The notes: generated by a model from the sequence alone, not told the origin. A stretch of DNA of 64,000 bases from Candidatus Oxydemutator sp. (GCA_965203445.1 OZ241883.1:1376001-1440000), one strand, 5' to 3'; shown: positions 30,966-47,639, counted from the stretch's first letter. Made by a program: numbers and translations.

Positions 30966-32264
30966 ATGGAAGTGTTGGCAATACTCCTGTTGCTTGCGCT
31001 GGCCGGCGGCGGGGTCTTCTTTGCGCGGCGGCTTGCCGGCGAGAAATCGCGCGCCGACGGCGCCGTCGCCACGGTCGCGCAACGCGATTCGCGCATCGCC
31101 GGCCTGGAGGAGAAGTTGCGCGCGGCCGAGGAAACCGAACGCGGACGGATTGCGAAGATCGCCCGTCTCGAGGCCGAACTCGAAAGCCGCACCGCCCATC
31201 TGGGCGAACGCCTCCGCGAACAGGGCCAATTCGAGGAGCGCATGAAGGACGCGGTCAAGCAGCTGACGCAGGAGGCGTTGCAGCACCAGGGGGATCGCTT
31301 CAAGCAGACCAACCGCGAGCAGATGGGCCACCTGATCGAGCCGCTCAAGAAAGACATCCGCGATTTCAAGGACTCGTTCGAGACGCTGAAGACCGAGACC
31401 GCCAAGGAACGCCAGAACCTGCTCACCCAGTTCAACCAGCTGAACCAGGCGGCGCTCGAAATCTCACGCGACGCGAGCGACCTGACGCGCGCGCTGAAGG
31501 GCGAGAAGCAGAAGCAGGGCGCGTGGGGCGAGAGCGTGCTTGAGACCATCCTGGAGGGCTCGGGCCTGCGGGAGGGACACGAGTATCAGCGCCAGCGATC
31601 GTTCACCGGCGACGACGGCGCCCGCCTGCGCCCCGACGTGGTCATCAACATGCCGTCGTCGGACGAGCGCGTCATCATAGACTCGAAGGTGTCGCTGGTG
31701 GCCTTTATCGAGTACGTCAACGCCGACGATGAGGAAGTCCGCGAGCAGGCGTTGCAGCGGCACGTGCAGGCCGTGCGCCGCCACGTCGCGAGCCTCGGCG
31801 AAAAGGGCTACGCCGACGCGGTCCGCTCCGATCTCGATTTTGTCATCATGTTCATGCCCATCGAGGCGGCGTTTGCGGCCGTGGTCGAAAAGGACCTGGA
31901 AATCACCGAATACGCGATCAAGCGCCGCGTCATCGTGGCGACGCCGACGACGCTGCTGCTGGCGTTGCGCACCATCGCCAACCTGTGGCGCGTCGAGAGG
32001 CGCAACGCCAACGCCGACGAGATCGCGCGGCGCGGCGGCGAACTCTACGACAAAGTCGCGCGGTTTCTCGAGTCCTTCGGCAAGGTCGGCGAGCGCATCG
32101 GCGCCGCGCGCGACGCATACGAGCAGGCCGAGAAGCGCCTGAAAAGCGGTCGCGGCAACCTCGTCCGCCAGACCGAAATGCTGCGTGATCTCGGCGCCAG
32201 CCCGGGAAAATGTATTCCCGAAGGTTGGCAGGAAGAAGATTTAGAAAAAAAGAGTCTCGAGTGA
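30966..32264 (+). CDS. rmuC: DNA recombination protein RmuC
   Basis: N-terminal TM, coiled coil, QGAWGE, RPDV, IDSKVSL, DFVIMFMP.E, TPTTL. Confidence 0.92.
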   Translation: MEVLAILLLLALAGGGVFFARRLAGEKSRADGAVATVAQRDSRIAGLEEKLRAAEETERGRIAKIARLEAELESRTAHLGERLREQGQFEERMKDAVKQLTQEALQHQGDRFKQTNREQMGHLIEPLKKDIRDFKDSFETLKTETAKERQNLLTQFNQLNQAALEISRDASDLTRALKGEKQKQGAWGESVLETILEGSGLREGHEYQRQRSFTGDDGARLRPDVVINMPSSDERVIIDSKVSLVAFIEYVNADDEEVREQALQRHVQAVRRHVASLGEKGYADAVRSDLDFVIMFMPIEAAFAAVVEKDLEITEYAIKRRVIVATPTTLLLALRTIANLWRVERRNANADEIARRGGELYDKVARFLESFGKVGERIGAARDAYEQAEKRLKSGRGNLVRQTEMLRDLGASPGKCIPEGWQEEDLEKKSLE

Positions 32265-33061
32265 TGGATGAAAATCTTGTTAACAAAATGAAGATCACGT
32301 TCAGGGGAAAGTTGCTACGTGTGTGGTGGTGGTTGCGTAAGAATCGCTATCGGTTCGGGTTTTTGTTTCGGAATGATTTGCACAAGCTGGCTGTGATCAA
32401 TGGAACTGATAAGTTGTCGCTGGGCTATATCGATCATTACGCGTTGCACCTATCAAAATTCAAAAGGAAAAGATTCAATCTGCTGGAAATCGGCGTTGGA
32501 GGTTACAAGGGTTCGTTGGCGGGTGGTGAGTCTCTGAGAATGTGGAAAACGTATTTCCCGCGCGCCAACGTATTTGGAATAGATATTTATGACAAGTCTC
32601 GTCTCGAGGAGACGCGCATCAAAACTTTTCAGGGGCACCAGGCGGAGGAAAATTTTTTGGAGCGGGTGGTTGCTGAGACAGGGGGTATAGACGTCGTCAT
32701 AGATGACGGCAGCCACGTCAGCGAGGATGTCATCCGGTCGTTTTGTTTTTTGTTTCCGAAGTTGAGCGACGGGGGCATATACGTTGTCGAGGATCTGCAA
32801 ACGTCGTACTATCCTGACTATCCTGATCCTGGTGTTGACCTGAACGCCCGAAACGACGTGAAGACGTCTATGGGTTTTTTCAAGAGCCTGTTAGATGGCT
32901 TCTACTATAAGGATTTTAAAGCCGTGCCGTCCGGCTACGAACCCAGTTACTTTGACAAGAAAATCGTGGCCATGCACTTCTATCATAATCTGCTATTTAT
33001 CTATAAGGGCGACAACGACCGAACCGTGTGGCATCTTTCCGGCGATGAACCCCCTGGGTGA
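32264..33061 (+). CDS. Class I SAM-dependent methyltransferase (MycE/TylE-like sugar O-methyltransferase family)
   Basis: GTDK, LLEIGVGGY, GGESLRMW, IDDGSH, YVVEDLQTSY. Lower GC than the flanks. Confidence 0.8.
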   Translation: MDENLVNKMKITFRGKLLRVWWWLRKNRYRFGFLFRNDLHKLAVINGTDKLSLGYIDHYALHLSKFKRKRFNLLEIGVGGYKGSLAGGESLRMWKTYFPRANVFGIDIYDKSRLEETRIKTFQGHQAEENFLERVVAETGGIDVVIDDGSHVSEDVIRSFCFLFPKLSDGGIYVVEDLQTSYYPDYPDPGVDLNARNDVKTSMGFFKSLLDGFYYKDFKAVPSGYEPSYFDKKIVAMHFYHNLLFIYKGDNDRTVWHLSGDEPPG

Positions 33062-33767: not shown

Positions 33768-34471
33768 TGCTGTTTGCGGCAGTGCGCCAGGTAGTTGACA
33801 TCGACGTCGCAGGTAAGCGACGCGCGGCGCGCCAGCGGGTTGTAGCGCATACCGCGCAGGTCTTTGACCGCCAGGCCGCCGCCGCGCGCGAACGCCGCAA
33901 GTTCCGAGGGGCGCACCAGTTTGCGGTATTCGTGCGTTCCTCTGGGCAGCAGGCCGAGCGCGTATTCGGCGCCGACGATTGCCAGCAGCCACGATTTCGG
34001 ATTGCGGTTGATGGTCGAAAAGAACACGTCGCCGCCGGGTTTTGCGAGGCGCGCGCAGGCGCGTACCAGCGACGCCGGGTCGGGCACGTGTTCGAGCAGC
34101 TCCATGCAGGTGACGACGTCGTATCGTTCGGGTTGCTCGTCCGCCAGCCGTTCGGCGGCGGTGCGGCGATAGGCGACGTCAAGCCCCGATTCGCGCAGGT
34201 GCAGTTGCGCGACCTTGATCGCGGCTTGGCCGAGGTCTATGCCGGTCACGCGCGCGCCGCGTCGCGCCATCGCCTCGCTCAGCAGCCCGCCGCCGCAGCC
34301 GACGTCGACAACCTCCTTGGCGCGCAGCCGCGCGCGCGCGTCGACGTAGTCGAGACGCAGCGGGTTGACGTCGTGCAGCGTCTTGTATTCGCCGCCGGCG
34401 TCCCACCAGCGCGCCGCGTTGGCCTCGAACTTGTCGAGTTCCATCGGATCAACGTTCGCGTTCATTTTCAT
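33764..34471 (-). CDS. ubiG: Ubiquinone biosynthesis O-methyltransferase
   Basis: NVDPMELDKF, WWD, LHDVNPLR, DVGCGGGLLSE, CMELLEHVPDP, STINR. Confidence 0.96.
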   Translation of the reverse strand: MKMNANVDPMELDKFEANAARWWDAGGEYKTLHDVNPLRLDYVDARARLRAKEVVDVGCGGGLLSEAMARRGARVTGIDLGQAAIKVAQLHLRESGLDVAYRRTAAERLADEQPERYDVVTCMELLEHVPDPASLVRACARLAKPGGDVFFSTINRNPKSWLLAIVGAEYALGLLPRGTHEYRKLVRPSELAAFARGGGLAVKDLRGMRYNPLARRASLTCDVDVNYLAHCRKQQ

Positions 34472-35850
34472 TCCACCCTCTCCCTGGGAGAGGGTTCAGT
34501 CTCTTCCTTACGGTGATTCGCCGCCAACCGCGCCGCAATTTTGCGCCGCCATTTCTCGGTTTCGGAGCACAGCGCTTGTTCGTCTATTGTAGTCAAAACC
34601 CGCTCGCGCAACACCCGCTGCCCGCCGATCCAGACGTCGCTGACTTCGCCGCGTCCGGCGGAGTACACCAGGTGGCCGATGACGTCGTGCAACGGGATCG
34701 CCTCGATGGTGGTGCATTCGACGGCGGTGAGATCGGCGGCCTTGCCTTTTTCTATCGAACCGGCGATTTTGCCTATGCCGAGCGCTTCGGCGCCGTTGAT
34801 CGTCGCCATGTCGAGCGCGCCGGCGGCGTCGAACGGGCGCGCGTCGTCCTGCGCCGCGCCGCTGACGGCGGCCAGCAGCGCGGCGCTTCTCATCTCGCCG
34901 AGCACGTCGAGATCGTCGTTGCTGGCCGAACCGTCGGTGCCGAGCGCGACGTTGACGCCGTGCGCCAGCAGCGAACGCACCGGGCAGATCCCCGACGCCA
35001 GCTTCATGTTCGATTCCGGGCAGTGCACGACGTGCGCGTTGCGCCGCGCGAGCAGTTCGATTTCCTCTTCGGTCAGCTGCGTCATGTGCACCGCGCGCAA
35101 CGCCGGTGTGATAAGCCCCAGCCGCTCGAGGCGTGCAATCGGGCGCGCGCCGTGTTTCTCGACGCCGTCGCGCACCTCGTCGGCGGTCTCGTGCAGGTGG
35201 ACGTGCACCGGCAGGTTGAGTTCGTCGCTGTAGGTGCGGATGCGCGTGAAGGTCTCGTCCGATACCGTGTACGGCGCGTGCGGCGCGAACATCAGGTGGA
35301 CGCGCCCGTCGTTTTTGTACTGGTCGTGGATTTCCAGCCCCTTGCGGATGTATTCGCCGGCGTCGGCGGCATAGGCGGTCTCGAACTCGAGCACGACCAG
35401 GCCGCAGCAGATGCGGACGCGCGCGCGGCAGGCGACGTCTATCGCGTCTTTTGGAAAGTAGTACATGTCGCTGAAACACGTGATGCCGCCGCGTATCATC
35501 TCGGCGATGGCAAGCTCCGCGCCGTCGCGCACGAATTGCGGCGTCAGCAGATCGCGTTCCAAAGGAAAGATACACTCGTGCAGCCAGCGCTGCATCGGCA
35601 GGCCGCCGCCGATGCCCTTGAGCAGGCTCATCGGCGTGTGGGTGTGGGCGTTGATCAGGCCCGGCAGCAGGATATGGGAGTCAAGGTGTATGCGCTCCTC
35701 GGCGTCGAACTTGTCGAGCGCCTCGTGCGTCGGCAGCACCGAGACGACGTGTCCCTTGTCCACCGCCACCGCGTGATCGTCCAGCACCGCGCCGCGCGGC
35801 CTGACCGGCACCACGTGGCGCGCGCTGATCAGGGTTTCGATTGCGCGCAT
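34468..35850 (-). CDS. mtaD: TRZ/ATZ family amidohydrolase (5'-methylthioadenosine/SAH deaminase-like)
   Basis: PGLINAHTH, HAPYT, HLHET, HCPESNMKLASG, GTDG. Conserved position next to ubiG. Confidence 0.85.
   Translation of the reverse strand: MRAIETLISARHVVPVRPRGAVLDDHAVAVDKGHVVSVLPTHEALDKFDAEERIHLDSHILLPGLINAHTHTPMSLLKGIGGGLPMQRWLHECIFPLERDLLTPQFVRDGAELAIAEMIRGGITCFSDMYYFPKDAIDVACRARVRICCGLVVLEFETAYAADAGEYIRKGLEIHDQYKNDGRVHLMFAPHAPYTVSDETFTRIRTYSDELNLPVHVHLHETADEVRDGVEKHGARPIARLERLGLITPALRAVHMTQLTEEEIELLARRNAHVVHCPESNMKLASGICPVRSLLAHGVNVALGTDGSASNDDLDVLGEMRSAALLAAVSGAAQDDARPFDAAGALDMATINGAEALGIGKIAGSIEKGKAADLTAVECTTIEAIPLHDVIGHLVYSAGRGEVSDVWIGGQRVLRERVLTTIDEQALCSETEKWRRKIAARLAANHRKEETEPSPRERVE
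34475..34495. repeat. REP-like palindrome ACCCTCTCCC-T-GGGAGAGGGT in the 3' end of mtaD
   Basis: 10-bp inverted arms, same family as 28292-28314. Confidence 0.6.
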
Positions 35851-36002
35851 CGCGGCACCGTGCTTGAAACTTCGGAGGGAAGCATGGAAGAATTATACTT
35901 GGGCCTCGGGTCGGATTTCGACGGCGGATAGATCGAAGTCTTGATCCGGCGTCAAAAAGGGCGCGCCGGGAAACGGCGCACTTCGACGGACTCTTGCGTT
36001 AA

Positions 36003-36771
36003 TATGAGAAAGTGTCTGATTGTACTGTGTCTGCTGGCGACATCGGGGTCGCTTGCGACTGAGACACGCTCGTCCGACCCGCCGGCTTTCCGGGTCGTCG
36101 GCACCTTTCCTCATCGTCTCCACGCCTTCACACAGGGTCTTATCGTGCGCGGCGATGCATTGATCGAAAGCACCGGGCGCTACCGCCGCTCGTCGGTCGC
36201 AATTCTCGGCCTTGAGCAAGGCGAGGTGCGGCGCGAGCGGGCGCTGTCCGGCGATCTGTTCGGCGAAGGGCTGGCGTTGTTCGGCGGGCGCCTGTATCAG
36301 TTGACGTGGCGCGCCGGGCGGGTGTTGCTCTACGACGCCGACACGCTCGAACCCGCCGGCGCGATGTCCTACAGGGGCGAGGGCTGGGGGCTTACGCACG
36401 ACGGCAGTCACCTGATCATGAGCGACGGATCGGCGGTCTTGAGTTTTCGTGCGCCCGATGATTTCCGCGTCGTGCGTCGCGTGACCGTGACCGAGAACGG
36501 GCGCCCGCTCAAACGCCTGAACGAACTCGAGTGGGTCGAGGGCGACATCTACGCCAACGTCTATCTACAGGATCGGATCGTCGCAATCAATCCGCAAGAC
36601 GGCGTCGTGCGCGCCGCGCTCGATTTGTCCTCCCTCGCGCAGAAAGTCCGCGCCGAGGTGGACGCAGGCGTCCTCAACGGCATCGCCTGGGACGCCGCCA
36701 CGCGCCGCCTGTTCGTAACCGGCAAGAATTGGCCGGCGGTGTATCAGATCGAATGGCGCGTGGCGCGTTGA
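36003..36771 (+). CDS. Glutaminyl-peptide cyclotransferase (secreted)
   Basis: Signal peptide, AFTQGL, ESTG, FGEG, QLTW, EGWGLT, LNELE, VLNGIAW, TGKNWP. Confidence 0.92.
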
Positions 36772-36914: not shown

Positions 36915-38303
36915 TTGCCTTCCAGAAAGAAGCGTATCTTCGTTCCTCGCAAGACCCCGAGGTTGTTTGTCTCGGCGCGCTCCAGGACCCCCAAGACTTT
37001 CGGATTGGGCAGAAAATACCCGTTTCGCTACGAAGCGAAAATACACGCCGATGTTCCGCACGTGGTGAAGTTTTCGGGTGGGCGCTCGAGCGGCATGCTG
37101 CTGTTCGTTTTGCTTGAGTCCGGCTTGTTGCGGCGCGAGCGCGGTGACGTTGTGGTTTTTAACAACACTTCCGCAGAGCATCCGGAGACTTATCAATTTG
37201 CGGCTTTGTGCAAAAGTATCGTGGAGGAGCATTACGGAATCCCTTTCTTCTGGCTGGAGTTTCAGACCTATGAGGATGCGCGCAACGGGGAGTGGACGCG
37301 CCTGCCATCCTATCGCTTGGTGCAACCGAAGCCATGCTCCAAAAGGGTTCCGGATGGCTACTTCGGGAAAGGCGAGACCTTCGAGGAGATGCTTTCCTGG
37401 GCCGGGTTTGTCCCGAACCAGTTTCAGAGGACCTGCACCAAAAACCTCAAGTTGCGGGTGACGAGATTATTTCTTCGAGACTGGTTCGCCTGCAAAGATG
37501 GGATTGAACGCTTGGGCCATCACGGAGAGGAAAGCCGCCTGGATGATGAAACCATGTACGCGCGACACCGCAAGCACAACGGCGGTGTCCCGCGCAAAAT
37601 CCTTCTTGAGAAAAAGGCCTATCTACGCTCACGTCCCACCTATAGAGCCGAACAGCGTTTCGCAGATTTTTCGGCGGCGTTTGAACCTGTCCGGAGCCAA
37701 TATCTTCGAGAGAGAAGCTACGGCAACGGCGCGGTTTTCGGCGATGACGGCGTTGAATATGCCGCCTTTGTCGGACTTCGTCATGATGAGATGCACAGGG
37801 TCGCAAAAGTCCGCGCGCGCAACGCCAGGGGGGCCGAGTCCGACGGGTATGAGGGCGAACACGTTTATATGCCCTTGTCGGACATGGTGGTTACCAAAAA
37901 GAACGTTTCAGAGTTTTGGAATTGTCAGGATTGGAATCTTGGCCTGCCCGACGACGCCAATCTCTCGAACTGCGTCTATTGTTTTCTCAAGGGGGTGCGC
38001 GGTCTCCAGAACGTGCACGGCACAATGAACGGCAATGGATCGAACGGATCGAGCGTGAACGGCAACAAGTATAGAGGCACCCCGTGCGATATTGGGTGGT
38101 GGCGACGCATAGAAGAAACGTACGGTCGTGATCTGAAAGCAGAGGAACGCCCGATGAAAGAAGGCCGGGTCAAGGGCGATTTCATAGGCTTCTTCGGCGC
38201 CTCAAGCGGCTTTTCATACAAGCTTCTGGCGCAGAACGGCCACAAGCCCCAGAACCTGTCAGAGTTTTCCGATAGCGTCCTGCCGTGCGATTGCACGGAT
38301 TGA
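36915..38303 (+). CDS. PAPS-reductase-like / PP-loop (adenine nucleotide alpha hydrolase) protein with Cys motifs
   Basis: KFSGGRSS PP-loop, FNNTSAEHPETY, RTCT..LK, GLRHDE, SNCVYCFLK, C-terminal PCDCTD. GGAGG SD before the TTG start. Confidence 0.8.
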   Translation: MPSRKKRIFVPRKTPRLFVSARSRTPKTFGLGRKYPFRYEAKIHADVPHVVKFSGGRSSGMLLFVLLESGLLRRERGDVVVFNNTSAEHPETYQFAALCKSIVEEHYGIPFFWLEFQTYEDARNGEWTRLPSYRLVQPKPCSKRVPDGYFGKGETFEEMLSWAGFVPNQFQRTCTKNLKLRVTRLFLRDWFACKDGIERLGHHGEESRLDDETMYARHRKHNGGVPRKILLEKKAYLRSRPTYRAEQRFADFSAAFEPVRSQYLRERSYGNGAVFGDDGVEYAAFVGLRHDEMHRVAKVRARNARGAESDGYEGEHVYMPLSDMVVTKKNVSEFWNCQDWNLGLPDDANLSNCVYCFLKGVRGLQNVHGTMNGNGSNGSSVNGNKYRGTPCDIGWWRRIEETYGRDLKAEERPMKEGRVKGDFIGFFGASSGFSYKLLAQNGHKPQNLSEFSDSVLPCDCTD

Positions 38304-38323
38304 ATAACTGACGGGTTGGAATT

Positions 38324-40078
38324 ATGCTGGATGAAGAGACTGAAGCTGTACAGATAAGGCAGAGAAGCCTCAAAGATTGGTTGATTGACGTACGCCGGGG
38401 TGTAGTTCGGCTGCCTCGCTTCCAAAGAGATGAGACATGGGGTCATACTCTTGTCGGCGATTTTATCGAAGCGGTACTACTAAAGCGTCCTCTCGGTTTT
38501 TTCCTCGTGTTGGCTGTGAATCCTGATAAGCAGCCGTTCGAGACGCGCCCAATCGCTGGAGCCGTCAATAACGGCGAGGATTGCCGGGAGCATTTGCTTG
38601 ACGGTCAACAACGCCTCATGGCGCTTTGGAGGTCTTTCAACGGCACTTATAAGGGTTATGTGTTCTATGCAAAATGGAATGAGGAGGGAGGCCTCTATAA
38701 TTTTGAACAAGTGGTTAGTGTTGCGAAGGGCAAGACTAATCTACAATGGATAGGAAAGCCCGAATCCGAGTTCATAAAGCATTGTATTCCGATTTCCTAT
38801 CTGGGGCCGGAGCAAATTGAACGAGCGCACGACTGGGTTCGTAAAGCGACCACAGATGAGGAGTCTAAGCGTTGCCTAACCAACCTTATTGGCAAAATAC
38901 ATTCGACGATTTTATCAACGCAGTTGCCATATCTCTGTATACCTCAGGAAACTGATCCTGATGATGCGATTGATATTTTTATCAAAGCAAATACTTCATC
39001 GGTGCGGCTTAATCCATTTGATATTGCAGTTGCCCAGTTCGAGGCTGCAACACCAGCCAAACGGCGGCATTCATCCCAGTCGTTACGGGATTTAGTAGAT
39101 ATGGCTAAAAACCGTATCCCTGAGGTGGCTAACCTTGAGGGTGAAGATAATCTTGGTGATTTGGCACTTAAGATAGCTTGTGTTAAGCAGAAAATGAAGC
39201 CGACATATGGAAATTACCGAAAGGTCATACCGGCTTTGGAACATAATTGGAACTCTATCCTCCGAGGCATGAAATGGACTGCACAAGCCCTCGGAGAAGA
39301 ACATATCTGGGATGCGCGCATCTTGCCGAGTACTGTTCCTCTTCGCGTATTGTCGGCACTGTCCCCATTTATTCCTAAAGAGGGAGATAAGCGTGGCAAG
39401 GCAAGACGGCTGGTGCGAAGTTATCTATGGAGATCTTTTGTGACTGACTGGTATGCCAAACAAGCGAATGACCGATTGTTGAGTGACTTCAGAGCGCTGA
39501 AAGAGGCTCTTGAGAATGAAACTTTCACTGTTCTTCCTGATCCGTCAGGACGTCCGGATACCGTATTCGATAGGCCACTTCCCGATGAGGAAGCGCTTTT
39601 TATGGAAGGTTGGCCGAAAAGGAAAGGGATTCTGAAACGGGCTATTCTGGCAGTATCGGTCATAGGGGGCGCTAGAGATATGGAAACCGATGGAAAAATT
39701 TCTGCTGACAATATCCAAAGCCGTCAGTATCATCACATTTTCCCCGACAGATTGCTGAAGGATCATGCAAAAGATGAAGAACCAAATTTGGCCCTGAATT
39801 GTATGTTGCTGGAGGCTTCAACAAATATCAGCTGGAGAGACGAGTGGCCCGGGGACTATCTCATGCAGCGCGTCGAGCAGTCTGGCCTCAAGGGATCGAA
39901 GGCTGAGAAGGCCATTAAGAGCAGGCTCGAATCTCATCACATTCCGAGTGACGTCATTATGAAAGCGAAGAAAAGCGCCAAAGCAGATTTGGCAAAGACT
40001 TATCAATCCTTTCTGCAAAAACGTGCAGAAATGGTCATGGCTGCCTTCCGAGGACTTTGTGCAGGGGAGGATCTGTAG
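38324..40078 (+). CDS. DUF262 (GmrS/ParB-like) + C-terminal HNH-like domain protein, GmrSD-like
   Basis: LPRFQR..W, LLDGQQRL, IFIKANT, C-terminal YHHIFP...N......N. Confidence 0.85.
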   Translation: MLDEETEAVQIRQRSLKDWLIDVRRGVVRLPRFQRDETWGHTLVGDFIEAVLLKRPLGFFLVLAVNPDKQPFETRPIAGAVNNGEDCREHLLDGQQRLMALWRSFNGTYKGYVFYAKWNEEGGLYNFEQVVSVAKGKTNLQWIGKPESEFIKHCIPISYLGPEQIERAHDWVRKATTDEESKRCLTNLIGKIHSTILSTQLPYLCIPQETDPDDAIDIFIKANTSSVRLNPFDIAVAQFEAATPAKRRHSSQSLRDLVDMAKNRIPEVANLEGEDNLGDLALKIACVKQKMKPTYGNYRKVIPALEHNWNSILRGMKWTAQALGEEHIWDARILPSTVPLRVLSALSPFIPKEGDKRGKARRLVRSYLWRSFVTDWYAKQANDRLLSDFRALKEALENETFTVLPDPSGRPDTVFDRPLPDEEALFMEGWPKRKGILKRAILAVSVIGGARDMETDGKISADNIQSRQYHHIFPDRLLKDHAKDEEPNLALNCMLLEASTNISWRDEWPGDYLMQRVEQSGLKGSKAEKAIKSRLESHHIPSDVIMKAKKSAKADLAKTYQSFLQKRAEMVMAAFRGLCAGEDL

Positions 40079-40083
40079 TCACA

Positions 40084-42039
40084 ATGAGGAAAATGCCTGC
40101 TTTGCAATTCGGCCCCGGCGATCCGGCGGGTTTTACTTCTACCGGGCTTACGGGTTTTCAGGATTTGCGGCCGGAGGCCGTGGTGCGGGAATTGGTGCAA
40201 AACGCCACGGACGCCGCGGTCGAGGCTGGAGAGAAATCGGCTCGGGTCCGCTTCCGGCTGCATCCTCTGAAAACGGATGAAATTCCGGGAATCAAAGAAT
40301 ACCGGGCAGCCTTTGAACAGGCGGTTGAAAGTCAAAAAAAGTTGCGTGGTAAAGGAGGAGACCTGCCGTCTCAGGCTAAGGCGGTCGTGCGGGCCATCCA
40401 AACATGTCTCGACAAAGAAGAATGTGATGTTCTGTCAGTGTCCGACAATGGCATAGGACTCGACGGGCGGCGTATGGTGGCTCTTCTTGGTGACGGCATG
40501 AGCGTCAAGGCCAACGAGGCCCAAGCCACCGGTGCCTTCGGGAATGGCCACGTCGTGGCGATTCCGGCTTCCGATCTTCGCTATATCCTCTATGGAGGAG
40601 TGGTCGAGGGCGGCCGTAAAATAGGCAGTGGTCATGCCATTCTGGCTTCTCACCAGGGTGACGATGACGGGCGGCGGCTGAGCAAAGACGGTTATTTCGT
40701 GAAGGAATTGAGGGATGATTTATACGATCCGTACGTTTTCGCCGTGAATAATGAAATTCCCTCGCTGATAAATACCGAGCTGGAACGGATACATGAGGAA
40801 TGGTTGCACGGGAGCGTGATCGTTATTCCCGCGTTCAATCATTTCAGAGAAGATAGCGGATCATTCTGGGAACTGGTATCGAGCGCCGCGGCGACGAACT
40901 TTTTTGTCGCGATTGCACAGCAACGCCTCGCGGTTTCTTATGAGGAAGACGGTCTGTCTGAGGCCAAGGTATTAGACCATAATTCGCTGGCTGCCGTTCT
41001 CGAAACGCACAAGGAGAAAAAGAGAGGAAATTCCTTTTTGTCCGGAAGTCGCGCTTATGAAGCTTTTCAAACGCTGAAAAAGGGCCGCCGGATAGAATTG
41101 GAGACCCAGGCAGGCCTTGTCACATTGCTGCTGAGATGTTCTGCCGACGACGGCACTCGTGCCGATTTGTGTCGCAACGGCATGTGGATTACCAACGAGT
41201 TGCCAGTTTTCCGCAATCAATTCTCCGGTTGTCAGGCGTTCCACTGCCTGGTACTGCTCGACGCCGGCTGTGACTTGCACGACCTCGTGCGGGATGCGGA
41301 AGGCCCTCTGCACAATTCTTTGCCGCTGAAATATCTCGAACCTGCCGAAAGAAGAAAGAAGCTACGAAGGGTGTTCACTGAAATCAGAGAGCGCTTGAAA
41401 AAAGAAGTTCCCCGTATCGAAGCAGAACAGTTTCGACCCGACGACATATTTGTCGTGGGTACTCATGGTGTAGAGCAGGGAGGGATGAGACCTGCATATA
41501 CAGGAACCGCGACGCCTGTACGGAGTCCTCGCCCCAGCCAACACGGCACTGGTGACAATCCCAGGATAAGAGTTGGGGAAGGGAGGAGAATAACGCCCGA
41601 CGATACTGTGAGAAAGCGTCGGGGCGCGGGAAAGCCGCTGGCGTTTGAAGCATTGCCGGTTCCGACGGGGCCTCGTTCGTGCAGAGTGGAGATTATTCCG
41701 TCGGAGGATTGCGCCAATAGCGAGTTCAGAATCGCATTGGACGAAAATCTGGATGTTACCTGTGATGGTGCTGGTCGTGAGTCCTATATGGTGCTGTCAG
41801 ATGCGAAACTCGGCGGCGTGAGCGCCCCGGAAGAGCAGTTGATGTACGACGATGATCACAGGGTTCTCGGCTTGAAACTCGGCAATCTCACGGCCGGGCA
41901 GCGTTACGTCGTCGAGGCGGACTATGCAATTCCCGCCGACGTTTCGGTGCCGGACGATCAGCCCGTCGTCCTTCAGATCGAAGTGTTGCGTCACAGGCGT
42001 GTGGCGGGCGACGCCGGGCCGCAGGAGCCAGGCCAATGA
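40084..42039 (+). CDS. GHKL/HATPase-domain protein of unknown function
   Basis: RELVQNATDA (N box), SDNGIGL (G1 box), GAFGNG (G2 box), long uncharacterised C-terminus. Confidence 0.75.
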   Translation: MRKMPALQFGPGDPAGFTSTGLTGFQDLRPEAVVRELVQNATDAAVEAGEKSARVRFRLHPLKTDEIPGIKEYRAAFEQAVESQKKLRGKGGDLPSQAKAVVRAIQTCLDKEECDVLSVSDNGIGLDGRRMVALLGDGMSVKANEAQATGAFGNGHVVAIPASDLRYILYGGVVEGGRKIGSGHAILASHQGDDDGRRLSKDGYFVKELRDDLYDPYVFAVNNEIPSLINTELERIHEEWLHGSVIVIPAFNHFREDSGSFWELVSSAAATNFFVAIAQQRLAVSYEEDGLSEAKVLDHNSLAAVLETHKEKKRGNSFLSGSRAYEAFQTLKKGRRIELETQAGLVTLLLRCSADDGTRADLCRNGMWITNELPVFRNQFSGCQAFHCLVLLDAGCDLHDLVRDAEGPLHNSLPLKYLEPAERRKKLRRVFTEIRERLKKEVPRIEAEQFRPDDIFVVGTHGVEQGGMRPAYTGTATPVRSPRPSQHGTGDNPRIRVGEGRRITPDDTVRKRRGAGKPLAFEALPVPTGPRSCRVEIIPSEDCANSEFRIALDENLDVTCDGAGRESYMVLSDAKLGGVSAPEEQLMYDDDHRVLGLKLGNLTAGQRYVVEADYAIPADVSVPDDQPVVLQIEVLRHRRVAGDAGPQEPGQ

Positions 42040-42878
42040 GCGGCAGCGATCTGGTGCGGATATTTCCCTATCCGGTGCTTCAGGAGGGCAACCTGTCGTT
42101 TCCGCAAGGGAAATACTCGCCGAAGGTCGAGATGAGTGCCGACGGATGTTCGGCGACGGTGTGGCACGTGCTCAACGGTGCTCCTCTCATCACCCGACTC
42201 ATCGAGGAGAAGCGCGCCGCCTGTGCCTGTTCGGTATCCATACCGATTACCAGTTACCGGCGTGTGCACCGGTCGGAAGACACCGAGCAGCGGATCGAGT
42301 GGAACAAGGACATTGTCGGGGAACCAGCGATTTTGCATCCTGTGGTCGTGTGTCTTGAGCGATTGCAATGCGATTTGTCTTCTGACGACGGCGTTGGCGA
42401 AGCATGGTTCGGGCGCAACGTCATTTTTGAAGCAGGGGCAAAAATTGCCTTGGGATCGTTCTTCCGAACGTCTTCATCGCTTCAGAGTCTCCTGTCCGTT
42501 ATTCGGGATCCCGAGCTTAAGTCGGGGCGACTATTCGTGGAGCTTGGTTCCGAAGATGGGTTTTATTTCACCGTGCACGTCGCCGCCGACCTTCATGATT
42601 TTCTCCAGCGTTGGGGTGGTGAAGAGCGTCGTCTGCACCGAAACAGCATTTTTACCCACGTCGTGAGCCGTTGTCTTGAGTTGTTGGCAAAGGAATACGG
42701 GAAAGAGGAAGGTGATGGAGAGGAAGGATGGCGTTGCCACAAAAATCTGGTGGCTTTGGCCTCGGATCTGGAAAATCGCGGATTGCCAATTTGGGATGAC
42801 GACAGTTTCGTCCCTGAAAAAGTCGCAACCGCCCTTCAGCCCCACGTCGTCCCCAAAGTAGAGGGTGATCCCGCGTGA
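42036..42878 (+). CDS. Hypothetical protein (N-terminal FPYPVL motif), operon member
   Basis: 280-aa ORF with ATGA overlap upstream and GTGA overlap downstream. Confidence 0.75.
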   Translation: MSGSDLVRIFPYPVLQEGNLSFPQGKYSPKVEMSADGCSATVWHVLNGAPLITRLIEEKRAACACSVSIPITSYRRVHRSEDTEQRIEWNKDIVGEPAILHPVVVCLERLQCDLSSDDGVGEAWFGRNVIFEAGAKIALGSFFRTSSSLQSLLSVIRDPELKSGRLFVELGSEDGFYFTVHVAADLHDFLQRWGGEERRLHRNSIFTHVVSRCLELLAKEYGKEEGDGEEGWRCHKNLVALASDLENRGLPIWDDDSFVPEKVATALQPHVVPKVEGDPA

Positions 42879-43750
42879 ATCCTCACCAATTTGATGACGG
42901 CACTTATACTTCCTTTCGGAGGTCATTGCTTGCAGAGAAGGGTTCCAGGTTCCAACGTGATTTTTTGCGAGCGGCCCGTCAAAGTGCCGCCTTTCTCGCG
43001 TTCGTGCAAGACAAGGTCGCCAGGGTAAAAGGTGACGATTTTCCGATTTACGGAAACTCACTGACCGAGCATGAATACAAGGAACCGCCACCCGACACCG
43101 AGCACGCCCTGTATTCGACCTGGAGGGGAATAACGCCGGCGGTCGCATGTCGCACTACGTTCTGGGCCGAAGTCACCTTCCGTCATATCGAAGGCAAGCG
43201 CATAGAGGCAAGTTATCTGGCCGCGAACGGGGGTGCACAGGCCGGCGGACTCGAACGGATCGAGCGGGTTCTTGAACCTGCTCGCTCGGAGGCATCTGAC
43301 AAGGCCGTTGATGCTTGTGTGCGCACAATTCTCCGGCGGATGAGCGGGTTGCGCGAAGCGCGAGGCAACCGAAGTCCTTACGTGGATTGCCCGTTCGGCC
43401 GCGCCTGGTGGCGTGAACGTGCCGTCGCGGAAATTTGTTCGAATGCTGGTGTTTCCCGGGAGGACGTTCTCGGGATACTCAGGCTGAGCCAGGGGTATTG
43501 GGAAGAAATCGTTTCCCAGATTGTTTCCAGAAACTCGGTCGTGGGCGACGGGAAAGTCCGCGACGCCTTGGTGGTATGTCTCATCGCCCAAAAAGATTCG
43601 AGACCTGATAGCCCGATTTTCCAAGGCAAGGAATTGCGCAAGTTGATAAAGCTTCTCGGGATCAGGAGCGCGTGGCAGGAGCTTAGTGTTTTGGAGTTGG
43701 ATGACTTGATCACGCTCATAGGCAAAGAAATGAAGGCGGTGACAACCTGA
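42875..43750 (+). CDS. Hypothetical protein, possibly DUF6339-like
   Basis: 291-aa ORF coupled to the previous gene. FW...H and FGRAWW motifs recall DUF6339 (from memory, unverified). Confidence 0.7.
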   Translation: MNPHQFDDGTYTSFRRSLLAEKGSRFQRDFLRAARQSAAFLAFVQDKVARVKGDDFPIYGNSLTEHEYKEPPPDTEHALYSTWRGITPAVACRTTFWAEVTFRHIEGKRIEASYLAANGGAQAGGLERIERVLEPARSEASDKAVDACVRTILRRMSGLREARGNRSPYVDCPFGRAWWRERAVAEICSNAGVSREDVLGILRLSQGYWEEIVSQIVSRNSVVGDGKVRDALVVCLIAQKDSRPDSPIFQGKELRKLIKLLGIRSAWQELSVLELDDLITLIGKEMKAVTT

Positions 43751-44108
43751 CCGCATGGAGTCTGTTATTGACCGCGCTCGGGCTTCGGTTAATAATATGT
43801 GAGGAATTTTTTCGGAAAGCGCGAGGAGGCAATTTTATGCGACATAACGAGGCTTTCTTTTTCGGCGCCGACCATGCCGGCCCTTGATTACGAGTTCGAC
43901 GTGGACGAATGGGGGTTGCACCTGGGCTACAGCCTTTCGTTCGGATTTGGCGCGTTCTGATATTTTCGCCCGCCCCTGACCCGGCTTTGCGTCTGGCTTC
44001 GGGTTCGGCCTTGGCCGCCGCCACCCGCTTTTTGCCGTTCCTCGTTTCCGGGTTTCTCTCAAGTGGGGATTTGCGTGGCGAATGGCGCGCGGTTCACGGA
44101 GGCTCGTC

Positions 44109-45596
44109 ATGAAAAAGCCGGCCGTTACACCCGTGTTCGTCGGTTCCAGCCTGCTGATTTTCTTTATTCTGCTTTGTTCCCTGTTCGCCCGGGACTCCTT
44201 TTCCCGGTTTCTTTCCTGGGCGCGGGATACTTTTGTTCTGAATGTATCCTGGTTCTACGTCCTGGTCATTTTTCTGCTGTTTCTCGTCTGCCTGTATCTG
44301 ATATTCGGCCGCTATGCAAAAGTTCGTCTGGGCCGGGATCAAAACGCAAGGCCTCGCTACAGCCTCGCCACCTGGCTGTCCATGCTTTTCAGCGCGGGTA
44401 TGGGAACCGGCCTGTTGTTTTCGGGAGTGTACGAACCGCTCCACCATTACTTCTATCCCCCGGTCGGGGAGGGCGCGACGCCACAGGCCCTGGAATTGTC
44501 CTTCCGGCTCACCTTTTTGCACTGGGGCTTTTCCGGTTGGGCGGTCTATACCTTTGTGGGCTTGGCCATGGCCTATCTCTGTTTTCACAAAGGGCGGGCC
44601 TTTCGCTTTTCCTCGATGCTGCCCGCGACCTTCAGCCGGCGGGCCGGCGGAAAGGCCGGCGACCTGATAGACGTTCTGGCAATCGTGGCCATCCTGTTCG
44701 GCGTCGCGACCTCTTTGGGGCGGGGGGCCTTGCAGATCAACGGCGGGTTGCACGAACTGTTCGGGCTGCCGGTGTCCGCGCCGATGCAGGGGCTTGTGAT
44801 TGCGGTGATAACCGGCCTGGCCACGGCTTCCGTGCTGTCCGGTCTGGATCGGGGGATACGTCGTCTGAGCGAGCTGAACGTCGTGTTGTGCCTGTTTCTG
44901 ATCGGCTTCGTCCTGTTCCTGGGGCCGACGAGTTTCCTTCTCAATTCCCTCATCGAGCATACCGGCGCTTATTTTCAAAACCTGATAGCAAGCATGACTT
45001 GGTTGGAAACGCTGGGAGATTCGCAGTGGCGTTCCGGCTGGACGATACTCTATTGGGCGTGGTGGATCGCGTGGGCGCCCTTCGTCGGCAGTTTTATCGC
45101 ACGCATTTCCGAGGGGCGCACCATCCGGGAGTTCGTCGCCGGCGCTTTGTTCGTCCCGGTGTTGCTCACCTTTCTGTGGTTCGCGGTTTTCGGCGGCACC
45201 GCGATTCACCACCACGTGCAGGAAGCTATGGACCTTCGGCCATTTTTGAAGACCGAGTACGCGCTCGTCGTGTTCAAGTTTTTCGAGTATTTCCCGTTCG
45301 CGCAGGCGGTCTCCCTCGTCACCGTGGCGGCGATAGTCATATTTTTTGTGACCTCGTCGGATTCCGCCTCCTACGTAGTCGATCAAATCGCCCGAGGCCG
45401 CGCACGCCCCAGCCCCGGCCAAAAAATCTACTGGGCGGTTCTGGAAGGCGCCGTCGCCGCGCTGCTGCTTTTCACCGGCGGCGTGAAGTCTCTGGAGTTG
45501 TTCGTCATCGTCGTAACTTTCCCGCTGAGCCTGATTCTGCTGTTCGTGTGCTATCACTTCTTCCAAAGCATCAGAACCTCCGAAAAGCCCGCATAG
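44109..45596 (+). CDS. BCCT family (betaine/choline/carnitine) transporter
   Basis: WLSMLFSAGMGTGL, HWG, WTILYWAWWIAWAPFVG.FIARIS.GRTIREF, TSSDS. Confidence 0.95.
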   Translation: MKKPAVTPVFVGSSLLIFFILLCSLFARDSFSRFLSWARDTFVLNVSWFYVLVIFLLFLVCLYLIFGRYAKVRLGRDQNARPRYSLATWLSMLFSAGMGTGLLFSGVYEPLHHYFYPPVGEGATPQALELSFRLTFLHWGFSGWAVYTFVGLAMAYLCFHKGRAFRFSSMLPATFSRRAGGKAGDLIDVLAIVAILFGVATSLGRGALQINGGLHELFGLPVSAPMQGLVIAVITGLATASVLSGLDRGIRRLSELNVVLCLFLIGFVLFLGPTSFLLNSLIEHTGAYFQNLIASMTWLETLGDSQWRSGWTILYWAWWIAWAPFVGSFIARISEGRTIREFVAGALFVPVLLTFLWFAVFGGTAIHHHVQEAMDLRPFLKTEYALVVFKFFEYFPFAQAVSLVTVAAIVIFFVTSSDSASYVVDQIARGRARPSPGQKIYWAVLEGAVAALLLFTGGVKSLELFVIVVTFPLSLILLFVCYHFFQSIRTSEKPA

Positions 45597-45755: not shown

Positions 45756-46718
45756 ATGAAAAATTGCCCGCTGGAACGGCTGGACGGGAATTCCGACGCC
45801 CGCAGGCGGCTGCTTCCTTTCTGTCGCCTCAAAAGAGGAGATGTGTGGGAAGACCCTGTTCGAGGGCATCGTGTCGGCTGTCTCGACGCCACCTCTGAAG
45901 CGGACATCAGTTTGCTTATGGCAGGGGAGAAGGCGACTCTCTCGATCCAGGATCCCCCGTATAACCTGGCGGCGTTCGAGAAGCGTTCCGTTCAAGAGTT
46001 TGTCGGCTGGTGCAGACGGTGGATGGGCGTTACCGAGCGGATTCTTTGCGATAATTCCGCGCTGTACGTCTGGCTGGGCGCCGACCAGGAAAACGCTTTT
46101 CAACCGTTGCCCGACTTCATGATCATGATGCGCGATTTTCCATCCCTGAAGAGCCGGTCTTTTATCACGATGCGCAATCAGAGAGGATACGGCACACAAC
46201 ACAACTGGATGTCGGTAAGGCAGGAGTGTCTCTATTATGTAAAAGGAAAGCCGGCATTTTACGTGCAATACACCGATATTCCCAAAATCCTGCGCGGCTA
46301 CTACAAGGAAGTAAATGGAAGGAAGACGGAAAACCTCGAACGAAGCAAGTCCGAGAATATCCGGCCGGGTAACGTCTGGGTGGATATTCAGCAGATTTTC
46401 TATCGCATGCGGGAGAACGTGAACGGGTGCTACGCCCAAAAGCCCCTGAAATGCATAGAAAGGCTGATCCTGGCCAGTTCTCACGAGGGCGAACTCGTCA
46501 CAGACTTCTTCGGCCACTCGGGAACCACCCTGGTCGCGGCTGCCAAACACAAACGCAGGTGTTTCATATGCGACGTCGATCCCGTCTATGCCGAGATCAT
46601 GATTCGCAGGATCGAAAGATATTATGAGATCGGCAAAGAAGGATGGCAGAACGGCAATCCTTTCGAGAGGGAACTAATGGGAAATCTCGAACCGGAGCAG
46701 GCGGCCTTGAGAGTTTGA
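45756..46718 (+). CDS. Site-specific DNA methyltransferase, beta class (N4C/N6A)
   Basis: DPPYN precedes QKP and DFFGHSGTT (motif IV before motif I). Confidence 0.9.
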   Translation: MKNCPLERLDGNSDARRRLLPFCRLKRGDVWEDPVRGHRVGCLDATSEADISLLMAGEKATLSIQDPPYNLAAFEKRSVQEFVGWCRRWMGVTERILCDNSALYVWLGADQENAFQPLPDFMIMMRDFPSLKSRSFITMRNQRGYGTQHNWMSVRQECLYYVKGKPAFYVQYTDIPKILRGYYKEVNGRKTENLERSKSENIRPGNVWVDIQQIFYRMRENVNGCYAQKPLKCIERLILASSHEGELVTDFFGHSGTTLVAAAKHKRRCFICDVDPVYAEIMIRRIERYYEIGKEGWQNGNPFERELMGNLEPEQAALRV

Positions 46719-46721
46719 GCC

Positions 46722-47639
46722 ATGGGTAGAAGCGTTCCGCATCCATTTCCATATCAGGGTAGCAAGCGTGGTATTGCCAGGCATATTCTGCGCTGTTTTC
46801 CGAACGATGTTTGCCGTCTTATCGAGCCTTTTTGCGGGGCTGGCGCGGTTTCTATTGCTGCCGCCGCGCACGGATTGGCCGAGAGGTTCATACTGAATGA
46901 CCTGAACGCACCGCTGATGGGTCTTTGGCGGGAGATTCTGGAAAGGCCGGCGCGGTTGGCCGACGAATACGAGAATCTATGGAACGGGCAACTTCCCGAT
47001 AGCAAGGGGTATTTTTTCCGTGTCCGCGATGAGTTCAATGCCACTCATCTTCCGCATCATTTGCTTTATCTGCTTGCGCGTATTGTGAAAGGGTCGGTCC
47101 GATACAGTGCCGACGGATCGTTCAACCAGAGTGCCGACAACAGGCGATTGGGCATGCGCCCCGCCACCATGAGGAAAAATATTTTCAGCGTGTCCGGTCT
47201 GCTTGCCGGCAAGACCATCACCTTCGCCGCGGATTTTCGTGAAGTCGTAAAGAAAGCAGGAGGCAAAGATTTGATCTACATGGATCCTCCGTACCAGGGC
47301 ACGTCCTTCACGAGGGATCATCGCTACTGTAACGGACTGGCGTACGATGATTTTGTCGGCGCGCTGTCGGAAATGAACGAGAGGCGTCTTTCCTACATTG
47401 TCAGTTACGACGGCGCCACCGGAACAAAGATTCATGGAAAAACATTGCCGCGTTCCCTGTCGCTACGGCACCTTCGTATCCATGTGGGCAGATCGAGTCA
47501 GGCAACGTTGTCAGGAGGCCGTGCCGAGACAATCGAGTCGCTGTATTTGTCCCCGACCCTGACAAAGCGATTGGAGCGAGATACGCGCAGGATCGCAGCG
47601 ATGAGAGACGAGGAGCAACGGGCACTCGCTTTGGCATGA
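46722..47639 (+). CDS. Dam-like (alpha class) DNA adenine methyltransferase
   Basis: PYQGSKR, EPFCGAGAV, LND, YMDPPY, SYD. Confidence 0.9.
   Translation: MGRSVPHPFPYQGSKRGIARHILRCFPNDVCRLIEPFCGAGAVSIAAAAHGLAERFILNDLNAPLMGLWREILERPARLADEYENLWNGQLPDSKGYFFRVRDEFNATHLPHHLLYLLARIVKGSVRYSADGSFNQSADNRRLGMRPATMRKNIFSVSGLLAGKTITFAADFREVVKKAGGKDLIYMDPPYQGTSFTRDHRYCNGLAYDDFVGALSEMNERRLSYIVSYDGATGTKIHGKTLPRSLSLRHLRIHVGRSSQATLSGGRAETIESLYLSPTLTKRLERDTRRIAAMRDEEQRALALA

Follow-up and report, generated by a model that had tools for sequence, protein, structure and literature searches.

As of January 2026, four phosphorothioate systems had been established, namely dnd, ssp, tdp and BREX type 4 (PMC12914056). 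In the Tdp system, tdpC alone suffices for phosphorothioate synthesis, and in BREX type 4 (brxPCZL) the PglX methylase is replaced by a PAPS-reductase protein, BrxP, which together with BrxC makes phosphorothioate (PMC12914056). MORC and paraMORC GHKL ATPases have been linked to DNA methylases, mostly those acting on cytosine, in predicted restriction-modification operons (PMC2292703). The present analysis concerns five genes, g1 to g5, in a stretch of 64,000 nucleotides (nt) from Candidatus Oxydemutator sp. (hereafter the window, with positions counted from its first letter), which an earlier note made from the nucleotides alone (the sequence-only reading) had taken for a five-gene DNA modification and defence operon. 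Four of them, g1, for an SspD-like PP-loop enzyme, and the trio g3, g4 and g5, for a GHKL ATPase, a beta-sandwich protein and a DUF6339-like protein, are a self-contained unit, and beside the trio g1 takes the place of a C5 cytosine methylase. Judged by its homologies, the cluster is probably an immune system akin to restriction-modification in which one DNA mark has been exchanged for another; g2, for a DUF262 protein, is a frequent accessory of the unit and not one of its core members.

By profile comparison, the g1 product belongs to the PAPS-reductase superfamily and resembles SspD, from which it differs by two large insertions (roughly 40 and 90 residues). A profile of 40 sequences of the g1 family aligned with eight bona fide SspD proteins from genomes at a probability of 98.3% (hhalign, E 1.8e-14, 170 columns); the alignment spans the PP-loop, R-x-C-T, VG(L/I)R-DE and S-x-C-x-x-C-F motifs, and both families have a Cys pair at the C-terminal end. 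The residues S54-G55-G56, C99, C174, C353, C356, C458 and C460 are invariant in the 40 sequences, in agreement with the sequence-only reading, which had described a PP-loop enzyme with CT, CxxC and terminal CxC cysteines and had placed it among the kin of phosphorothioation enzymes. An iron-sulfur (Fe-S) site is probable on the pattern of these cysteines. By those families' own models, g1 would not count as a member of SspD or DndC. The PADLOC SspD model (PDLC02782) matches partially, at residues 155-193 only, and no single stretch passes (E 1.4e-7, 29.5 bits); six DndC proteins align over the N-terminal half only (hhalign, 54.8%, E 1.2e-4). Pfam PAPS_reduct scores 17.8 bits, below its cut-off of 22.5, the BrxP model matches weakly (E 0.009), and phrog_424 (PAPS reductase) matches at 9.1e-27. 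No protein of the organism's own genome matches the SspD model at E<=1e-20, as 11 of 201 genomes do, or the DndC model (TIGR03183) at E<=1e-30. The family has 1360 matches at E<=0.001 in the protein collection, the best 120 of which are at 54-91% identity, and the few homologues that bear a source name are all called hypothetical. No sequence relative of g1 was found in the PDB; a match to a 14-3-3 chain was rejected because it is to that chain's His-tag. A second g1-like copy (L004, G063:C11:231837-236054; best tblastn segment at 38% identity) coexists with a full cassette in one genome; it adjoins a topoisomerase gene, and g3 to g5 are not visible within its 1.5-kb flanks.

Scanning metagenomes with the g1 alignment yielded 65 loci. 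When the genome loci are added, the g1 match reaches 300 amino acids (aa) or more in 53, of which 12 are fully flanked, with 3.5 kb or more on either side. Both g3 and g5 are present in all 12 and g4 in 11, the exception being a decayed cassette (L029:8305-9986) in which only 110 aa of g3 and 152 aa of g4 are left and in which g5 and g1 are of full length; g3 is visible in 35 of the other 41 loci. Gene order varies (g1 first, or g3-g4-g5-g1) and the set is kept. Co-occurrence of genes 1 and 3-5 elsewhere, on which the sequence-only reading depended, was thus found nearly everywhere that the flanks allow a look, in the 12 flanked loci as in eight genome loci, which come from the class to which the window's organism belongs. 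In four of these eight, no recognised defence gene or nuclease lies among the nearest open reading frames (ORFs) scanned, several of which have no Pfam match; at L114, for example, the order is pyrG-kdsA-[g1 g3 g4 g5]-eno. Since half of the genome loci stand alone among housekeeping genes in this way, g1, g3, g4 and g5 are a self-contained four-gene unit. The distribution of g1 is sporadic, in that it occurs in 2 of 401 genomes of a phylum sample.

Many relatives encode, on model matches, a DndA/SspA-type cysteine desulfurase inside the cassette. A gap of ~1.2 kb after g1 is filled in 13 of 13 such loci by an ORF of 380-392 aa, a representative of which matches Aminotran_5 (3.1e-77) and the PADLOC models SspA (1.4e-143) and DndA (3.4e-142). 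Other neighbours recur among 28 clustered loci: a gene for a PbeA-like helicase (5.9e-146) at six, one for a PbeC-like ABC ATPase (2.6e-42) at four and one for a ~700-aa helix-turn-helix (HTH) protein at five, with a DndB-family gene (PF14072, 3e-26) at L010 and HNH_2 endonucleases at L008, L010, L109 and L117. The Pbe-like block, which runs from the ~700-aa protein to the helicase and then to the ABC ATPase, recurs downstream of the cassette at L008, L011, L013, L016, L018 and L046, not all three genes being present in every locus. The ~700-aa protein has matches to sigma-70 region 4 and to the HTH of the type found in the C-terminal domain of the RNA polymerase alpha subunit, and none to a PADLOC model. 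At L010 (859-9736 and 16464-17726) there are also a ZorD/DpdE-like SNF2 helicase (3.1e-114) and three large proteins without a family match (877, 748 and 268 aa), and the DndB-family gene there lies on the opposite strand.

The trio g3 to g5 is, by sequence comparison, a set of distant members of PDC-M33ABC, an unvalidated candidate of PADLOC. Bergerat-fold GHKL motifs (N box, DxGxG, Gly-rich lid) can be read in g3, and the GHKL boxes recognised by the sequence-only reading are kept in all 23 aligned sequences, in which E36, N40, D43, D121-N-G-x-G125, G150, G153 and G155 are invariant. g3 matches PDC-M33A at 7.1e-29 and scores 17.2 against Pfam HATPase_c, below the cut-off of 26.4. Its profile has weak matches in the PDB to MORC3/4, PMS2, TopoVI-B and MutL (best E 0.042), HATPase_c_3 is found in 48% and 32% of the members of the named Atlas clusters nearest to it, and a scan of viral contigs with the GHKL alignment gave no match. 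g4 matches PDC-M33B at 2e-8; a search of the Atlas returned hypothetical proteins in unnamed clusters only, and a sequence search of the PDB returned designed proteins only. The whole AlphaFold2 (AF2) model of g4 (predicted local distance difference test score, pLDDT, 86.4; predicted template modelling score, pTM, 0.58) has no match in the PDB at E<=0.001 by Foldseek, and VIA-align gives only generic Ig/FN3-like matches (Z<=7.8). The AF2 model of g5 (pLDDT 93.3) is all-alpha, and as a whole it found a best Foldseek E of 0.75 in the PDB and a best VIA Z of 6.7, the latter for residues 204-291 only; the PDB sequence search gave nothing useful. E65, E67, W97, R150, R154, R163 and W179 are conserved in g5, which matches no PADLOC model. 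DUF6339 is PADLOC's PDC-M33C, and 10 of 18 members of the g5 family match the Pfam DUF6339 model, the best at 1.1e-8 and the window copy at E 0.031; against one true DUF6339/PDC-M33C protein, hhalign gave E 7.9e-4 at a probability of 25%. For comparison, a bona fide PDC-M33 locus (L086) matches M33A at 2.2e-91 and M33B at 2.1e-38. At that locus, a 401-aa gene (L086:5088-6293) follows the DUF6339 gene; it has no Pfam or PADLOC match and might be a further component of the methylase type.

Gene order and gene sizes are the same in the window as in PDC-M33. The sequence-only reading had counted two of the five genes as unknowns beside the GHKL ATPase; as distant relatives of PDC-M33A, B and C, genes 3 to 5 are not wholly unnamed. 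The literature searched held no validation of PDC-M33, nor was a paper on DUF6339 found in it. Where the cassette does differ from PDC-M33, apart from g5, is in the company that the trio keeps: trios without g1 stand beside a C5 methylase in 10 of 10 loci, and the g1-type clade has there an SspD-like enzyme, with or without a desulfurase. The C5-methylase adjacency is an observation of the present analysis and not a stated PADLOC rule.

This exchange of modifiers emerged when genomes were searched with the GHKL model alone, a query that takes no account of the modifier. Among 400 genomes of a class sample and 401 of a phylum sample, 16 and five respectively have GHKL-model matches, the window's genome included. 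In the 19 loci outside the window, ORFs were labelled by hidden Markov models from alignments made here, by blastp and by Pfam. The trio adjoins g1 in eight of the 19, a C5 cytosine methylase (PF00145) lies within four genes, and g1 is absent, in ten, and the last (L112) is cut by a contig end. Every locus with visible flanks therefore has the trio beside a DNA-modifying enzyme, and g1 takes the place of a C5 cytosine methylase there; the island that holds g1 to g5 in the window has no PF00145, its two methylases being of the N6_N4 and D12 classes. In a maximum-likelihood tree of 42 GHKL proteins, the g1-type proteins lie on one side of a single branch (support of 99 in the Shimodaira-Hasegawa-like approximate likelihood ratio test, SH-aLRT), L112 being labelled g1-type though its g1 is not visible. 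Modifier type changes once on this tree, against 9.1 changes expected in shuffles, and the methylase-type GHKL proteins form three deep lineages. In one genome (G780), a trio locus of the g1 type coexists with one of the C5-methylase type (L109 and L118), and another (G457) has two g1-type loci (L112 and L117), one of them cut by the contig end.

In BREX, one machinery serves both methylation and exclusion. The cluster resembles BREX types 1 and 4 in having a conserved machinery whose methylase is replaced in one branch by an enzyme of the PAPS-reductase family, and in that no classical nuclease is recognised in the core; unlike BREX type 4, it has no BrxC, PglZ or BrxL, it relates to BrxP by the weak match given above, and its ATPase is of the GHKL and not the P-loop kind. 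The prokaryotic MORC and paraMORC systems are likened to it by description only, through a GHKL ATPase linked to cytosine methylases in operons resembling restriction-modification; as a difference, the words PAPS, PP-loop and Dnd are all absent from PMC2292703. With SspABCD-SspE the cassette shares a PP-loop enzyme that is like SspD down to the cysteine motifs, an SspA/DndA-type desulfurase in many relatives and a DUF262 protein with a putative nuclease end beside the modification genes (PMC9646914, PMC12914056). It departs from SspABCD-SspE in that the trio replaces the P-loop ATPase and the nickase (there is no SspB or SspC), in that g1, at 462 aa and with its two insertions, fails the SspD threshold, and in that g2 has no SspE match and is nearer to BrxU and GmrSD. 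The likeness to DndABCDE with DndFGH or PbeABCD lies in the PbeA-like, PbeC-like, DndB-family and DndA-like genes beside relatives' cassettes (PMC10853773, PMC6459918), whereas DndD and DndE are lacking, the alignment of g1 with DndC is limited as described, and the Pbe-like genes are absent from the window. TdpABC provides a precedent for one PP-loop enzyme sufficing, with separate restriction proteins, and is likened by description and not by sequence. A PADLOC scan of the eight island proteins (E<=0.01) found no SspB, SspC, DndD, DndE, BrxC, PglZ or BrxL. The sequence-only reading had likewise recognised no DndD/E, SspB/C or BrxC/PglZ, and PADLOC found none of these in the window; a cysteine desulfurase, which it had not recognised either, is absent from the island.

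With slightly better than even prospects, these homologies make the cluster a restriction-modification-like system that combines a swappable DNA-marking enzyme with a constant three-protein GHKL module. In such a system g1 would be an ATP pyrophosphatase resembling SspD, probably with an Fe-S site, and would take persulfide sulfur from a cysteine desulfurase and write a sulfur mark, most likely a backbone phosphorothioate, on the cell's own DNA. This role is suggested for g1 because its exchange partner is a DNA methylase, because the sulfur donor enzyme is often in the cassette, and because the neighbours are DNA-directed and include phosphorothioate-associated families. The desulfurase, encoded within the cassette in many relatives, would in the window's organism be supplied in trans from elsewhere in the genome; four class-V aminotransferase genes (best E 6.5e-85) lie there beyond the island. 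Together, g3, g4 and g5 would form an ATP-driven DNA clamp or scanner, which may serve targeted marking, the exclusion of unmarked incoming DNA, or both, and g2 would in this lineage supplement the core as an optional nuclease arm. From the homologies, conserved motifs and gene linkage observed, we infer DNA as the substrate, phosphorothioate chemistry, complex formation, Fe-S binding and an anti-phage effect. A bolder form of the proposal is that the cluster represents a fifth kind of phosphorothioation or other sulfur-marking immunity, in which the GHKL/MORC-like trio, with no nuclease recognised in it, is the self/non-self machine and the mark has switched once from C5-methylation to backbone sulfur; this is a serious possibility that falls somewhat short of an even chance.

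Several points weigh against the proposal of a swappable marking enzyme on a constant GHKL module. DNA modification, Fe-S binding, complex formation and defence are all reached by inference. g1 fails the SspD, DndC and Pfam PAPS_reduct thresholds and has two large insertions, and its chemistry could differ; the island contains no cysteine desulfurase gene. For the window copy, the link between g5 and DUF6339 is weak. No nuclease or effector domain was recognised in g3, g4 or g5 by PDB profile, Foldseek or VIA searches, so that these proteins offer no evident means of excluding DNA. The extra nuclease modules at many g1 loci (DUF262, Pbe-like, HNH_2) would be partly redundant if the trio restricts. 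The metagenome loci were all found through g1 and include near-duplicates (L005/L006, L007/L018 and L054/L055), so that their counts are not independent, and the GHKL tree is the product of a quick search with a midpoint root, seven of its rows, namely six of the ten C5-methylase rows and L112, having long end branches. Finally, C5 methylases that need no helper fit the trio as a reader or effector, but say nothing direct on its role for g1.

This last point bears on the likeliest of the alternatives, in which g3 to g5 replace DndD and DndE, or SspB and SspC, as ATPase, nicking and recognition helpers for phosphorothioation by g1, with restriction performed only by add-ons (g2 in the window, Pbe-like or HNH_2 proteins elsewhere) and the four-gene loci serving modification only. 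Such a role would be in keeping with dnd, ssp and BrxP with BrxC, in all of which the PAPS-reductase-like enzyme needs an ATPase partner (PMC12914056), and with the common decoupling of Dnd modification modules from DndFGH (PMC10853773); in the loci examined here, recognised nucleases lie only outside the trio. A helper is, however, not obligatory, given that tdpC alone suffices in the Tdp system, and the trio has an entry of its own in PADLOC as a candidate for defence. C5 cytosine methylases work without a helper. A helper role therefore makes little sense for the trio at the ten of ten loci without g1, where it stands beside autonomous methylases of this kind, and because these enzymes need no helper and the four genes can stand alone, the trio is taken to be more than the helper of a sulfur enzyme. 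The purely auxiliary role is rather unlikely, with some probability left to it by the lack of a recognised effector domain in the trio. The sequence-only reading had made genes 3 to 5 a clamp and recognition module for the sulfur enzyme; they are its conserved partner, as that reading implied, but their pairing with C5 methylases speaks against a mere helper.

The next alternative concerns g2, which by sequence is nearer to GmrSD and BrxU than to SspE. Pfam GmrSD_N matches it at 4.8e-19 (69.7 bits, above the cut-off of 33.2), and D93-G-Q-Q-R97, H470, N492, C493 and N501 are invariant in 31 sequences, H471 nearly so, as would be expected of the DUF262 domain (DGQQR) with an HNH-like end that had been proposed for gene 2. 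For the HNH-like end the conserved motif is the evidence that suggests it: the C-terminal part matches no Pfam model even at E<=1, and the motif stretch aligns with the matching part of 7p9k at 0.7 bits only. 7p9k is a DUF262 protein, which we take to be BrxU, and the g2 profile matches it at E 3.5e-16; the other three PDB rows are unrelated proteins at E>=0.014, and the single g2 sequence matched nothing in the PDB. PADLOC assigns g2 to HEC-05, a stand-alone candidate (7e-14), and no SspE model is among its matches, so that the parallel with SspE drawn for gene 2 in the sequence-only reading is not supported. A g2-type protein occurs in four of the eight g1-type genome loci, in two of the 12 fully flanked metagenome loci and in none of the ten C5-methylase loci. 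It is found with g1 in four arrangements, in which it separates g1 from g3, follows g5, follows the desulfurase, or lies upstream in the opposite orientation. In the lists of the top 120 homologues of g1 and of g2, 18 entries agree in the size of their longest contig, which serves as a proxy for homologues of the two on the same contigs. g2 is accordingly a frequent accessory of the four-gene core, and of the five-gene system proposed earlier the core of g1 and g3 to g5 holds, with gene 2 dropping out as a fixed member.

Defence genes often cluster, and the island could thus be a composite in which g2 is an independent type IV (modification-dependent) enzyme of the GmrSD/BrxU kind, uncoupled from g1 and g3 to g5. 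The closest solved relative of the g2 family, its filing as a stand-alone candidate, its varying position relative to the cassette and its absence from half of the g1-type genome loci and from 10 of the 12 fully flanked metagenome loci would all suit an uncoupled enzyme. Against this, the g2 subfamily recurs with g1 in different arrangements and is missing from every C5-methylase-type locus, the longest-contig proxy pairs 18 of the top-120 homologues of the two genes, and in the window g2 lies inside the operon, with short gaps on both sides. A composite island is judged unlikely.

It is more doubtful still that g1 has another chemistry or target, that is, that it thiolates or adenylates and substitutes a DNA base, or acts on RNA or protein, whether still within a mark-and-read device or in a non-defence epigenetic or repair device. 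The failure of g1 to reach any family threshold, its insertions relative to SspD and the frequent position of the four-gene cassette among housekeeping genes would be compatible with such a departure. It is opposed by the DNA cytosine methylase as exchange partner, by neighbours that are all DNA-directed (PbeA/PbeC-like, DndB-like, DUF262 and HNH) and by a motif set in common with SspD that includes the cysteines, and the sporadic occurrence in the phylum sample and low guanine-cytosine (GC) content fit mobile defence better than housekeeping. A canonical Ssp, Dnd or BREX type 4 locus was rejected on the absence of the partner genes, and a chance juxtaposition of g1 and g3 to g5 because these genes stay linked in different orders and in different genomes.

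In the window, g1 to g5 are five co-oriented ORFs on the + strand, at 36915-43750 (Table 1). The gaps and overlaps given by the sequence-only reading were reproduced by the ORF coordinates: 20 nt between g1 and g2, 5 nt between g2 and g3, and overlaps of ATGA between g3 and g4 and of GTGA between g4 and g5. The start codon of g1 is TTG, with GGAGG 8 nt before it, and a consensus scan upstream found no promoter-like site. The longest ORF of g3 begins at a TTG at 40057; its start is placed at the ATG at 40084, and with this start its homologues align from the first residues of g3. The lower GC content reported for the locus was confirmed, at 0.47-0.58 over ~36.5-47.8 kb against 0.65-0.67 in the flanks. 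The low-GC island extends beyond g1 to g5 and also takes in a BCCT transporter gene and two DNA methylase genes, to 47639. The sign that it may have been inserted is this base composition only; no flanking repeats were seen at its ends, and a scan of eight proteins of the island gave no match to an integrase family. The sequence-only reading had placed the locus between mtaD and gyrA; gyrA does lie on the right, and the immediate left neighbour is a glutamine cyclotransferase gene, with the mtaD-like amidohydrolase gene beyond it.

Table 1. Coordinates of the genes, motifs and neighbouring features discussed for the window.
Feature	Position	Strand	Description
Amidohydrolase gene	34468-35850		mtaD-like; left, beyond glutamine cyclotransferase
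Glutamine cyclotransferase gene	35941-36771		Immediate left neighbour of g1
g1	36915-38303	+	462 aa; SspD/DndC-like PP-loop enzyme, PAPS-reductase superfamily
g1 PP-loop SGG	37074-37082		S54-G55-G56
g1 C174	37434-37436		Conserved Cys (R-T-C-T)
g1 C353-x-x-C356	37971-37982		Conserved Cys pair
g1 C458-D-C460	38286-38294		Conserved C-terminal Cys pair
g2	38324-40078	+	584 aa; GmrSD/BrxU-like, N-terminal DUF262
g2 DGQQR	38600-38614		D93-G-Q-Q-R97
g2 C-terminal His-Me/HNH-like motif	HH 39731-39736; N492 39797-39799; N501 39824-39826
g3	40084-42039	+	651 aa from ATG; GHKL (MORC/MutL-like) ATPase; C-terminal half unassigned
g3 N box	40189-40212
g3 DNGxG	40444-40458
g3 Gly-rich box	40531-40551
g4	42036-42878	+	280 aa; PDC-M33B-like; N-terminal beta-sandwich and C-terminal helices (AF2 model)
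g5	42875-43750	+	291 aa; divergent DUF6339 (PDC-M33C-like), all-alpha
BCCT betaine/choline-type transporter	44082-45596		PF02028, 1e-165; between g5 and the methylases
N6_N4-class DNA methylase	45756-46718		PF01555, 1.7e-27
D12/Dam-class DNA methylase	46722-47639		PF02086, 1.1e-33; PADLOC MTase_II 9.5e-85
gyrA			Right flank of island

The GC content of the BCCT transporter gene is ~0.59-0.60, above that of its island neighbours. The two methylase genes are 3 nt apart at the right end of the island, and no restriction enzyme was recognised beside them in the Pfam and PADLOC scans; they are either orphan methylases or part of a separate restriction-modification system. Just after gyrA, at about 50456-51460, there is a class-V aminotransferase gene (PF00266, 2.1e-28), which from the gene order we presume to be serC and not a cysteine desulfurase gene. 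Upstream of the locus, a second low-GC dip (0.51) at 32000-33060 covers an ORF (32210-33061) with a weak match to Methyltransf_24 only.

What was already known of this cluster is the trio as PADLOC candidate PDC-M33 and modification-based defence as a kind, and what is new here is the four-gene core, the PDC-M33/DUF6339 identity of genes 3 to 5 and the exchange of a methylase for a sulfur enzyme. The neighbourhood screen of PMC12914056 required a P-loop NTPase beside the DndC or SspD homologue, and a GHKL-coupled family would have been missed by it for that reason. The words GHKL, HATPase and MORC are absent from the reappraisal of the Dnd machinery in PMC10853773. No published account of g1 with the GHKL trio was found, a search that did not cover the supplements of PMC12914056 and PMC10853773, which could contain the family.

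If g1 marks DNA with sulfur, the cassette would be a new and compact four-gene route to backbone modification and would give PDC-M33 and DUF6339 a testable function. It would also constitute a natural experiment in which one effector module reads two chemically different marks of 'self', with a bearing on how MORC-type GHKL ATPases sense epigenetic marks. Should the cluster prove to be a fifth kind of sulfur-marking immunity, it would represent a second, independent swap of the kind that leads from BREX type 1 to type 4, and a MORC-like reader of a DNA mark in a prokaryote.

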